Positions 8,980 to 10,792 of a stretch of DNA of 64,000 bases are shown one piece after another; position 1 is the first letter of the stretch, and each line of letters opens with the position of its first letter. The stretch lies in the NCBI RefSeq assembly GCF_000026545.1, contig NC_011601.1. One strand, given 5' to 3'. This DNA comes from Escherichia coli O127:H6 str. E2348/69. GTDB taxonomy: Bacteria; Pseudomonadota; Gammaproteobacteria; Enterobacterales; Enterobacteriaceae. The notes beneath the pieces are model-generated. The model was not told where the DNA came from, did not search any database, and saw nothing but the letters and a program-made list of their open reading frames with translations. A program made the position numbers and the translations under genes.

Positions 8980-9376
8980 TAAAGCAGTGCCTTATGTCCG
9001 TAATAACCCGGACAAACTGCATCTGTTTGTGGATAACGGTTCGCTGGTTGCCACGGGGGCCAGCTCCATGTCATGGGAGTACCGCTACACCCTGAACGTG
9101 GTGATTGAGGATTTCAGCGGCGACCAGAATCTGCTGATGGCCCCGGTTTTGCTGTGGCTGCGTGATAACCAGCCCGATGCCATCAATAACCCGGCGTTAC
9201 GGGAAAAGTTATTCACCTTTGAGGTGGATATTTTGCGCAACGATGTCTGTGATATCAGCCTTAACCTGCAACTGACGGAGCGTGTGCTGGTCAGCACTGA
9301 CGGCAGTGTGTCGAGTGTTGAAGCGGTAGCGGAACCTGATGAACCTGAAGAAATGTGGACGGTGAAACGTGGCTGA
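8924..9376 (+). CDS. R: tail completion protein R (P2 gpR-like)
   Basis: ~150 aa; true start may be the in-frame GTG at 8945. Confidence 0.8.
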   Translation: MRVRSETVNKPQSLRHALNKAVPYVRNNPDKLHLFVDNGSLVATGASSMSWEYRYTLNVVIEDFSGDQNLLMAPVLLWLRDNQPDAINNPALREKLFTFEVDILRNDVCDISLNLQLTERVLVSTDGSVSSVEAVAEPDEPEEMWTVKRG

Positions 9377-9742
9377 ACTGCAGAAGGTGGACGACTGGCT
9401 GAGTGCCTTGCTGGCGAATCTGGAGCCAGCCGCAAGAAGCCGCATGATGCGCCAGCTGGCGCAGGAACTGCGCCGGACACAGCAGCAGAACATCAGGATG
9501 CAACGCAATCCTGATGGCAGCAGCTATGAACCGAGGCGAGTAACAGCACGCAGTAAAAAAGGCCGTATCAAACGGCAGATGTTTACAAAACTTCGCACCA
9601 CAAAATACCTGAAAACTGCCGCCAGCGCCGACTCTGCCAGCGTGCAGTTTGAAGGTAAGGTACAGCGCATTGCCCGTGTTCACCATTACGGCTTGCGTGA
9701 TCGCGTCAGCCGTAAGGGGCCACAGATACGTTATGCTAAACG
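9369..9742 (+). pseudogene. S: tail completion protein S (P2 gpS-like), 3' end disrupted at the inversion junction
   Basis: GTG start at 9369; S-like sequence runs for ~122 codons, then the open frame continues to 10157 as antisense of the tail-fibre gene. Confidence 0.6.
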
Positions 9743-10792
9743 TAGGTATGTGAGAAGACCAGTTACATCCTTTCCACTCAAATTAGTCAGCGTATTGTCC
9801 AGCGGTTGTTTACCTGCCAGTGCATTAAGCATTGTCGTGGCAAAGTTCGGGTCATTCCCCAGCGCCGCCGCCAGTTCGTTCAGTGTATCCAGTGCCGCAG
9901 GTGCAGAACCCACCATTGCCGCAATCGCCGATTTCACAAATGCCGTGGTGGCAATTTGTGTATTGTTGACCGACTGTGCCGCAGTAGGTGCGGTTGGCGT
10001 TCCGGTGAGTGCCGGACTCGACAGCGGCGCTTTCAGTGCCAGCGCATTGTTAATGGTGGTACTGAATTTCGGATCATTGTTAATGGCTGCGGCTATTTCT
10101 TTCAGCGTGTCCAGCGTGGCTGGCGCACCATTAATAAGAGCCGTCAGAGCCGCCTGAACAAACTCGGTGGTCGCAATCTGCGTGGTGTTATTCCCTGCTG
10201 CTGGCGTTGGCGCTTTGGGTGTCCCGGTAAACGTCGGACTTTCTTTGGGTACATACTGTGAATGCGGGTCCGGTGCGGCAAGATGTTTTGCCATCTGATC
10301 ATCCGCGTACACCTTCAGCTCCAGTGCCTTGTCATCCACATACTTGCGGGTTGCTAGCACTACAGCAGGGTCGATTTTCAGGGTGATATTGTCCGTGCTG
10401 CTGGTAATCAGCACCATGCGCACGGTCTGAGTGCGCCCGCTACCTTCAGCCAGTTGCGGCTTATAGCTTTCCGGGCAGTTGCCCACGGCAATCAATGCCC
10501 CGGACTCATCAAACAAGCCCACTTCACGTATCCACCAACCGCCCTCGTTTTCAGGAATCACCTGTTCGGCAATAATCTGACTGCTGTTCTGCGGGTCGAT
10601 ATAGAGCATATTCAGCGCAGCCCGGCGTTTCTCATTTACCAGTGCAGTCTGCTTTGAGTCTGGCGTTGGCAATACTCCGCCGCCATCGCCGACCGCCATA
10701 TGGGTAATTTTTAGCGGCACACCGAGCGCGGCGGCGCTGGCAAGTTTCGCCGCGCCAATATCCGTCAGCAGGGTATAAAATTTTGTGCTCAT
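9731..10792 (-). CDS. H: tail fibre protein H, N-terminal (proximal) part only, ends at the inverted repeat
   Basis: 353 aa, N-terminus MSTKFYTLLTDIGAAKLA...MAVGDGGG like P2 gpH, contains NNTQIATTAFV fibre repeats; no distal receptor-binding region. Confidence 0.8.
   Translation of the reverse strand: MSTKFYTLLTDIGAAKLASAAALGVPLKITHMAVGDGGGVLPTPDSKQTALVNEKRRAALNMLYIDPQNSSQIIAEQVIPENEGGWWIREVGLFDESGALIAVGNCPESYKPQLAEGSGRTQTVRMVLITSSTDNITLKIDPAVVLATRKYVDDKALELKVYADDQMAKHLAAPDPHSQYVPKESPTFTGTPKAPTPAAGNNTTQIATTEFVQAALTALINGAPATLDTLKEIAAAINNDPKFSTTINNALALKAPLSSPALTGTPTAPTAAQSVNNTQIATTAFVKSAIAAMVGSAPAALDTLNELAAALGNDPNFATTMLNALAGKQPLDNTLTNLSGKDVTGLLTYLRLA
9737..9747. repeat. left inverted repeat TAAACGTAGGT, candidate invertase crossover site
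   Basis: Exact reverse complement of 14499-14509; sits at the S/H junction; central AAAC..GGT resembles hix/gix-type cores. Confidence 0.45.

Follow-up and report, generated by a model that had tools for sequence, protein, structure and literature searches.

Wild-type DNA invertases normally need a Fis-bound enhancer together with crossover sites whose asymmetric cores match, and the recombinational enhancer bound by Fis usually lies inside the 5' part of the invertase gene. The P1 enzyme Cin reportedly also recombines at quasi-sites, with the choice of partner determined by the central dinucleotide, as described by Iida and Hiestand-Nauer; these cases are said to have been laboratory-selected on plasmids with a single cix site. 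The two Cin papers (1986 Cell 45:71; 1987 Mol Gen Genet 208:464) are cited in PMC4134206. A serine invertase makes 2-bp staggered cuts at the centre of its site and religates only matching cores (PMC4817059). In Escherichia coli E2348/69, sequencing of colony populations, with variant detection at about 1% according to its authors (PMC4272514), identified three flipping loci: Mu and two P2-like prophages other than the one described here (PMC4272514, Table S1).

The stretch of DNA that was analysed (the window, 64,000 nucleotides) is from E2348/69, an EPEC strain of serotype O127:H6, and carries a prophage of the 186/P2-like type whose integrase, CI, CII, Fil, Dam and replication genes are without pseudogene flags. 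Its tail gene S is broken. Very probably, this break was caused by an inversion at a secondary crossover site after the natural invertible segment had been lost, in a succession of three steps. The features concerned are collected in Table 1.

Table 1. Features of the inverted region and its surroundings (window coordinates)
Feature	Coordinates	Strand	Description	Basis
S, 5' part	9369-9746	+	P2 gpS family, codons 1-126	Pfam PF05069, L007 identity, PGAP
S, non-native tail	9747-10157	+	136 codons + stop, antisense-H read-through	ORF listing, relatives' H
J1	9731-9756		Hybrid 26-bp site TTATGCTAAACG TA GGTATGTGAGAA; core 9743-9744	
Inverted segment	9743-14503		Core to core, ~4.76 kb; carries H', I, J, W, V, ORF384, S 3' end	L007 alignment
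H'	9731-10792	-	Truncated tail fibre, 353 aa (350 native residues, then RLA + stop)	Pfam PF12571
I	10789-11394	-	Baseplate gene	ORFs, RefSeq, Pfam labels in relatives
J	11387-12295	-	Baseplate gene	ORFs, RefSeq, Pfam labels in relatives
W	12282-12641	-	Baseplate gene	ORFs, RefSeq, Pfam labels in relatives
V	12638-13216	-	Baseplate gene	ORFs, RefSeq, Pfam labels in relatives
ORF384	13299-14453	+	Inserted AT-rich gene (~32% GC), unknown function	Composition profile
S, displaced 3' end	14431-14499	-	Codons 127-148 + stop (LLGIYDTDFDIIEEIIINFLIR, then stop)	Rejoining to 9369-9744
J2b	14490-14515		Hybrid 26-bp site TTCCAAGTAACC TA CGTTTATGAAAA; core 14502-14503	
DNA invertase	14571-15137	+	Serine invertase (Gin/Cin/Hin/Pin family), 188 aa, intact	Pfam, PHROG, structures

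The ORF listing gives S as a frame of 262 aa with a GTG start (9369..10157, +), exactly as an earlier note on this DNA had described it. It is convergent with a minus-strand ORF of 353 aa (9731..10792) that matches the tail-fibre N-terminal domain family Phage_tail_fib (PF12571), and the ORF upstream is identified by Pfam as P2 gpR. The match to PF05069 (Phage_tail_S) in the 262-aa product is limited to residues 3-127, corresponding to profile positions 2-128 of 148, and the frame does not include a full-length domain (~148 residues). The note had also placed an interruption near 9740, where S would run into antisense H. Alignments with relatives and the Pfam results agree with this: homology with intact relatives ends at 9736-9747, the DNA beyond reads as H in reverse complement, and no native C-terminus precedes ~9740. 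The long non-native C-terminal tail that it predicted is also real, since the residual 136 residues match no Pfam family. Its counts require correction. Identity with the intact 148-aa S allele of L007 (a contig carrying an un-inverted copy of the prophage) shows that codons 1-126 are native, instead of about 122, and that 22 codons and the stop, instead of 25-30 codons, are absent from the frame (profile positions 129-148 are uncovered). The RefSeq (PGAP) entry for S covers 378 nt (126 codons) and is labelled as a pseudogene 'missing C-terminus'. Compared with P2 gpS and the 186 tail-completion protein (PF05069), residues 1-126 are those of a normal family member, but the last 22 residues are replaced by 136 unrelated ones.

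In the window orientation, the hypothetical product would consist of the 126 native residues followed by a 136-residue tail rich in Ala, Ser and Val. The antisense frame is open only because few H codons (Tyr/His/Gln) can yield a stop, with four such codons in this part. The exact 262-aa product has zero entries in the contig index because gene callers do not call that frame, and the truncated H' (353 aa) was used as the index query in its place. The 262-aa ORF is a by-product of the rearrangement, neither a functional gene nor a new protein. Within its late operon, S is probably the final gene. Searches for promoters and terminators near the junctions did no better than shuffled sequence.

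Comparison with intact P2-like prophages, as the earlier note had suggested, exposed an inversion. Window positions 1116-9736 are collinear with the Klebsiella phages Kp4845-2 (L002) and KP12 (L001), both intact relatives. Positions 9738-13216 are the reverse complement of their H(5')-I-J-W-V block, 13217-14497 is AT-rich DNA unique with respect to both, and collinearity resumes from 14498 to 22389, beginning just upstream of the DNA invertase gene, which is followed by the sheath, tube, tape-measure and D genes. The comparison with L007 is far closer, with 11 substitutions in 19.8 kb. Here, window 9737-14509 corresponds to L007 15141-10369 reversed (99.9% identity), while the flanks are collinear (window 1-9747 with L007 633-10379; window 14499-19815 with L007 15131-20447). 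Neighbouring alignment blocks share 11 bp, TAAACGTAGGT, at each end of the segment, which means that the inversion neither added nor removed a base. The way in which the blocks abut, together with half-sites that are exactly swapped, is that of a conservative reciprocal exchange at the core (9743/44 and 14502/03). The junction between S and antisense H that the note had described is one end of a site-specific inversion of 4.76 kb, the other end of which lies just upstream of the invertase gene.

Within this segment, I, J, W and V are inverted relative to the remaining late region. V-W-J-I-H' and ORF384 most likely retain their own upstream regions, which would have moved with them. ORF384 matches phrog_28299, of 'unknown function' (E 1e-276), gives no match with PADLOC and, in un-inverted relatives, lies antisense between S and V. 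A possible identification as cysteinyl-tRNA synthetase was rejected as a chance resemblance since both Pfam and NCBIfam scores are far under the curated thresholds. H is 422-573 aa long in intact relatives, where it extends past the crossover site. In the present prophage and its sisters it stops just past residue 350 in every state, 1-3 codons past the site in both orientations (LRLA or LRL, then the stop).

In relatives, the natural invertible segment includes the variable 3' end of H and the fibre-assembly genes (1,865 bp in Kp4845-2). Its left site, inside H, is TTCTCACATACC TT GGTTTGGGAGAA and its right site, before the invertase gene, is TTCTCC(C/T)AAACC AA CGTTTATGAAAA. This invertase family is active in close relatives: the segment lies one way round in contig L004 and the other way round in L009, with the half-sites exactly swapped. 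The three flipping loci of E2348/69 itself point in the same direction. In E2348/69 the segment is absent, exactly from core to core. There is no Caudo_TAP gene between H and the invertase, and the locus has neither the alternative in-frame 3' ends nor the assembly genes of a programmed fibre switch. What takes its place in L007 is an orphan site of 26 bp, TTCTCACATACC TA CGTTTATGAAAA, whose left half comes from the natural left site and whose right half comes from the natural right site. In strain EC16, an independent prophage has undergone the same kind of deletion with loss of the 2-bp core, TTCTCACATACC being joined directly to CGTTTATGAAAA. Invertases do not normally produce deletions between inverted sites whose cores are TT and AA.

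The partner of the orphan site is found in S. In L007 it reads TTATGCTAAACG TA GGTTACTTGGAA and has the central TA in common with the orphan site, within an identical centre of 11 bp. Its half-sites score 8 and 7 out of 10 (compared with 9-10 for natural sites), and approximately 1.1 sites of this quality occur per 64 kb of shuffled sequence. The same site occurs, unchanged, in four relatives without an invertase (L003, L005, L008 and L010). Being native to the S allele even there, it is a chance look-alike: a quasi crossover site located in unrelated DNA, matching the consensus in part and existing independently of any invertase.

The two junctions of the window are hybrids of these sites. 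In J1, the left half of the S look-alike is followed by TA and then by the orphan site's H-side half in reverse complement; in J2b, the right half of the S site comes first, in reverse complement, followed by TA and by that half of the natural right-hand site which lies nearer the invertase. Together they contain the four half-sites of L007 with partners exchanged around the TA core, which is the signature of a serine invertase. They form a pair of inverted 26-bp sites with 12-bp half-sites, identical TA cores and the 11-bp identical centre. When the 64-kb window was scanned with a half-site consensus derived from the natural sites, J1 ranked first and J2b third, and both fit the published crossover-site consensus (PMC4134206, Table 3).

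An appropriate enzyme is encoded 55 bp from J2b. The invertase gene product has the Pfam domains Resolvase (E 9e-53) and HTH_7, matches phrog_125 'DNA invertase' (E 3e-100) and aligns over residues 1-184 with the Mu Gin structures 3UJ3 and 4M6F (E 1e-93). It thus has the build of a small serine recombinase closely related to known invertases, the catalytic domain being N-terminal and the HTH C-terminal. An enhancer internal to the gene would have been retained, the gene being intact and adjacent to the junction.

The history that we favour would have begun with an ancestral deletion of the tail-fibre segment between its two 26-bp sites. The outcome can be seen in the DNA: an orphan site preceding the invertase gene, and an H that is cut at residue 350. 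The change from inverted sites with TT and AA cores to a deletion with a TA core may have involved an aberrant invertase reaction with mismatched overhangs and subsequent repair. In a second step, the outcome of which is provided by genome comparison, a presumed Gin-family invertase would have recombined the orphan site with the look-alike in S. This could have been the product of the neighbouring gene (14571-15137) or another invertase of the same strain acting in trans. The exchange was conservative and flipped 4.76 kb together with the S 3' end, ORF384, V, W, J, I and H'. The third step is read directly from the sequence: S now has 126 native and 136 antisense-H codons, and its last 22 codons lie at 14499-14431 (-). 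A simpler inversion, with the left natural site as the partner of S, was also considered and rejected. It would have placed the variable part of the fibre gene beside V, where AT-rich DNA is found instead; the S 3' end lies within this AT-rich DNA and the natural segment is absent.

Three states of this prophage, with an identity of at least 99.96%, can be found at one position in the chromosome, flanked by rcdA on one side and ybjL-ybjM-grxA-nfsA-rimK on the other. The un-inverted state is carried by L007, L017 and L022 (GCA_002461645.1), L018 (GCA_001605745.1) and L024 (run ERR14002501), with the order R, S (148 aa), antisense ORF384, V, W, J, I, H (352 aa), invertase and sheath; L007/L022, L018 and L024 occupy the same locus as the window prophage with 99.9% identity. 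The deleted state is found in L023 (GCA_019479745.1) and at least 24 other contigs, in the order R, S, invertase. Its S has 132 aa, ending in RYAKRTFMKMQR and a stop, and its site, TTATGCTAAACG TA CGTTTATGAAAA, is the predicted join. Deletion by the same pair of sites is to be expected if the symmetric TA core leaves a site without polarity. According to the informative SNPs, which are few, un-inverted strains fall on either side of the split. On this tentative evidence, the un-inverted state with its orphan site may be ancestral, and separate events may have led from it to the deletion and to the inversion (seen in E2348/69 and L025).

Could the inversion have occurred without a recombinase, by illegitimate, replication-slippage or RecA-mediated exchange at the 11-bp repeat TAAACGTAGGT, the resemblance to invertase sites being a coincidence? 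The repeat is perfect and present in inverted orientation at both ends and, by our arithmetic, repeats of 11 bp are common by chance in 64 kb. RecA, however, needs far more than 11 bp of homology. One of the partners is, moreover, what remains of the two natural crossover sites of the phage, the exchange is centred on the 2-bp core that serine invertases cut, the half-sites fit the family consensus, and the same pair of sites gave a precise deletion in another branch. We therefore regard such an origin as very improbable.

The invertase-mediated inversion might, alternatively, be part of an active or domesticated switch in which the 4.76-kb segment turns S on and off, or alters the context of ORF384, and is kept by selection. 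Both orientations do occur among near-identical prophages, the site centres are identical over 11 bp and the invertase is intact. However, the prophage is not among the flipping loci reported for E2348/69 (PMC4272514, Table S1), three complete assemblies of the strain and run-level contigs all show a single orientation, and H is truncated and the fibre-assembly genes absent in every state, with no obvious benefit from toggling S. A selected switch is accordingly very improbable. Both orientations were seen only in different strains, as assemblies, and not side by side in a clonal population; an un-inverted H carrying the SNPs particular to E2348/69 is not on record. Present-day switching was found neither in the assemblies nor in the published colony sequencing, and switching at low frequency may occur. 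It is doubtful that the orphan and S sites form an element that is still active at such a frequency, both flipping and excising the 4.76 kb of baseplate genes. If they did, the un-inverted, inverted and deleted states would be snapshots of a continuing, direction-less invertase activity, and the locus would be a natural counterpart to engineered substrates with symmetric cores: a prophage dismantled by its own invertase.

Simple truncation, in which the 3' end of S would have been lost when foreign or rearranged DNA was joined at ~9740, is suggested by the absence of PF05069 positions 129-148 from the S ORF and by the PGAP label. The earlier note had likewise taken the terminal codons to be missing, which is true of the S ORF but not of the genome, where the 22 codons and stop are present at 14499-14431 (-). 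When 9369-9744 is continued with the sequence that ends at 14501, taken in reverse complement, the result is a protein of 148 aa, the length of S in relatives, that ends in RYAKRRLLGIYDTDFDIIEEIIINFLIR and a stop. It matches PF05069 from position 2 to 147 of 148 and is thus a full-length member of the P2 gpS/186 family, scoring 142 bits compared with 120 bits for the fusion ORF. This rebuilt S has an exact match in 1,687 index blocks of public contigs, where it is always followed by an antisense gene of 381-386 aa and then by V-W-J-I-H. Since the exact rebuilt protein exists and its final codons are encoded on the minus strand, 4.7 kb from the rest, the 3' end of S has been moved, not deleted. 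The base-for-base conservation of the rearrangement with respect to L007 also argues against truncation, and together these results refute it.

The window is 100% identical to NZ_LT827011.1, LT903847.1 and CP059840.2, and both junctions are present in 3 of 5,426 complete E. coli genomes, those of E2348/69 only. Although short inverted repeats and several P2-like prophages per genome can confuse assemblers, and one metagenome contig joining icd to H' (L012, left out of the analysis) is visibly chimeric, misorientation of the block during assembly can be practically discounted, as three complete genomes produced independently of one another, and contigs of several independent runs, have junctions that are 100% identical, a single contig of 6.4 kb crosses both, and a repeat of 11 bp is too short to mislead an assembler.

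We found no description of this particular inversion in the literature, the original genome paper (PMC2612414) standing outside that scope. The scar that it has left is ordinary decay of a dead prophage. In this state the prophage would be unable to build complete tails because S is broken, H is truncated and there is no fibre-assembly gene. For a reference pathogen, the analysis supplies a correction to the annotation: S of E2348/69 is entered as 'missing C-terminus', yet its C-terminus is intact 4.7 kb away, and the 262-aa ORF should not be mistaken for a novel fusion protein. More generally, it identifies a concrete mechanism of prophage decay and advises caution over genes annotated as 'truncated' beside invertase genes. 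It is also a clear case from nature in which an invertase turned to a secondary site after the usual partner site had been lost, and all three expected products (parental, inverted and deleted) are preserved in sister lineages. This three-state series may be of some value for teaching and annotation.

The locus resembles the fibre switches of Mu (G/Gin), P1 (C/Cin), e14 (P/Pin) and the P2-like prophages of EC958 and E2348/69 in its enzyme family and 26-bp site architecture (PMC4134206, PMC4272514), in the position of the left site at the boundary between constant and variable parts of the fibre gene, and in the invertase gene that adjoins the right site. It differs from them in lacking the normal segment of 1.9-3 kb that holds the assembly genes and the alternative tips of the fibre; the block that is flipped consists instead of 4.76 kb of baseplate genes and an inserted gene. 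In addition, no protein gains an alternative C-terminus, and one orientation breaks a gene. The closer parallel is with the P1 Cin quasi-sites: a genuine site is paired with a partial look-alike in unrelated DNA through a common central dinucleotide (here TA/TA), and the product is inversion or deletion of the intervening DNA. Unlike the Cin cases, the products here have become fixed in E. coli lineages found in nature; the genuine site is itself a fusion, orphaned when the natural segment was lost, and the look-alike falls within an essential tail gene. The inversion is a natural instance of a known mechanism, secondary-site recombination, and not a new kind of system.

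The natural switch was found in both states in two Klebsiella/E. coli-type relatives, L004 and L009, whose invertible fibre segments lie in opposite orientations. Their half-sites are exactly exchanged (GGTTTGGGAGGG / ATCTCCCAAACC versus GGTTTGGGAGAT / CCCTCCCAAACC). The segment of L004 also includes an IS1 transposase fragment. The coordinates of these and the other features are listed in the table.

Positions of crossover sites, open reading frames and candidate cargo genes
Feature	Location	Strand	Details
Natural crossover sites	L004 15122-15147 and 16705-16730		identical positions in L009
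Deletion-product site	L023 7030-7055; also L027-L029		
Fibre-segment deletion join	L020 7228-7254		E. coli EC16, NZ_CP189734.1
Further antisense ORFs within H	window 9806-10261, 10167-10298	+	lengths up to 151 aa
ORF384	window 13299-14453	+	AT-rich gene
DprA-like protein gene	window 75-1049	+	PADLOC ShosA model, E 2.8e-70
KAP-family P-loop NTPase gene	L026 5586-7103 = NZ_LT827011.1 853585-855102		beyond window

A deletion product is common to a strain clade (at least 24 contigs) in which a 132-aa S directly adjoins the invertase gene, and V-W-J-I-H and ORF384 are all absent. The prophage of strain EC16 is an independent P2-like element that lacks ORF384 and whose S allele is different. Its invertible fibre segment is also gone, removed exactly between its two crossover sites, and the 2-bp core is missing from the join (TTCTCACATACC|CGTTTATGAAAA). 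The EC16 case suggests that precise deletions of the fibre segment recur.

In one metagenome contig (L012, ENA ERZ761545 NODE_61), icd and host genes are linked to part of I, the truncated tail-fibre gene H' and J1, the hybrid crossover site at the junction of S with antisense H. The contig agrees with the window over only 1,849 bp, and a stretch of 55 bp corresponds to window 35400-35454; it appears to be a chimera produced during assembly. As for the open antisense frames themselves, the presence of more long antisense ORFs inside H shows that they reflect the composition of this fibre gene, which is rich in Ala, Thr and Gly, and do not indicate coding.

The prophage also carries candidate cargo or defence genes. 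The variable region adjoining the portal gene Q is occupied by the DprA-like gene, a match to ShosA, which is the antitoxin-like partner in the anti-phage system ShosTA. In L007, which carries the same prophage un-inverted, a 191-aa gene, possibly ShosT, lies directly upstream of the ShosA-like gene. Its counterpart here would extend past the window start; the annotation of the complete genome (LT827011.1) has no entry for it. The KAP-family gene, flanked by the prophage integrase and CI repressor genes, is likely to be a further cargo or defence gene.

ORF384 has a GC content of about 32%, compared with 53-60% in neighbouring genes. It matches phrog_28299 ('unknown function'); a PADLOC search gave no match, and its only other matches, to cysteinyl-tRNA synthetase, were all sub-threshold. 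ORF384 and the diverged, AT-rich 3' end of S arrived together, and it is this 3' end that created the look-alike crossover site in S. In un-inverted relatives ORF384 is antisense, lies between S and V and overlaps the 3' end of S by 23 bp; this is the position occupied by orf30 in P2.
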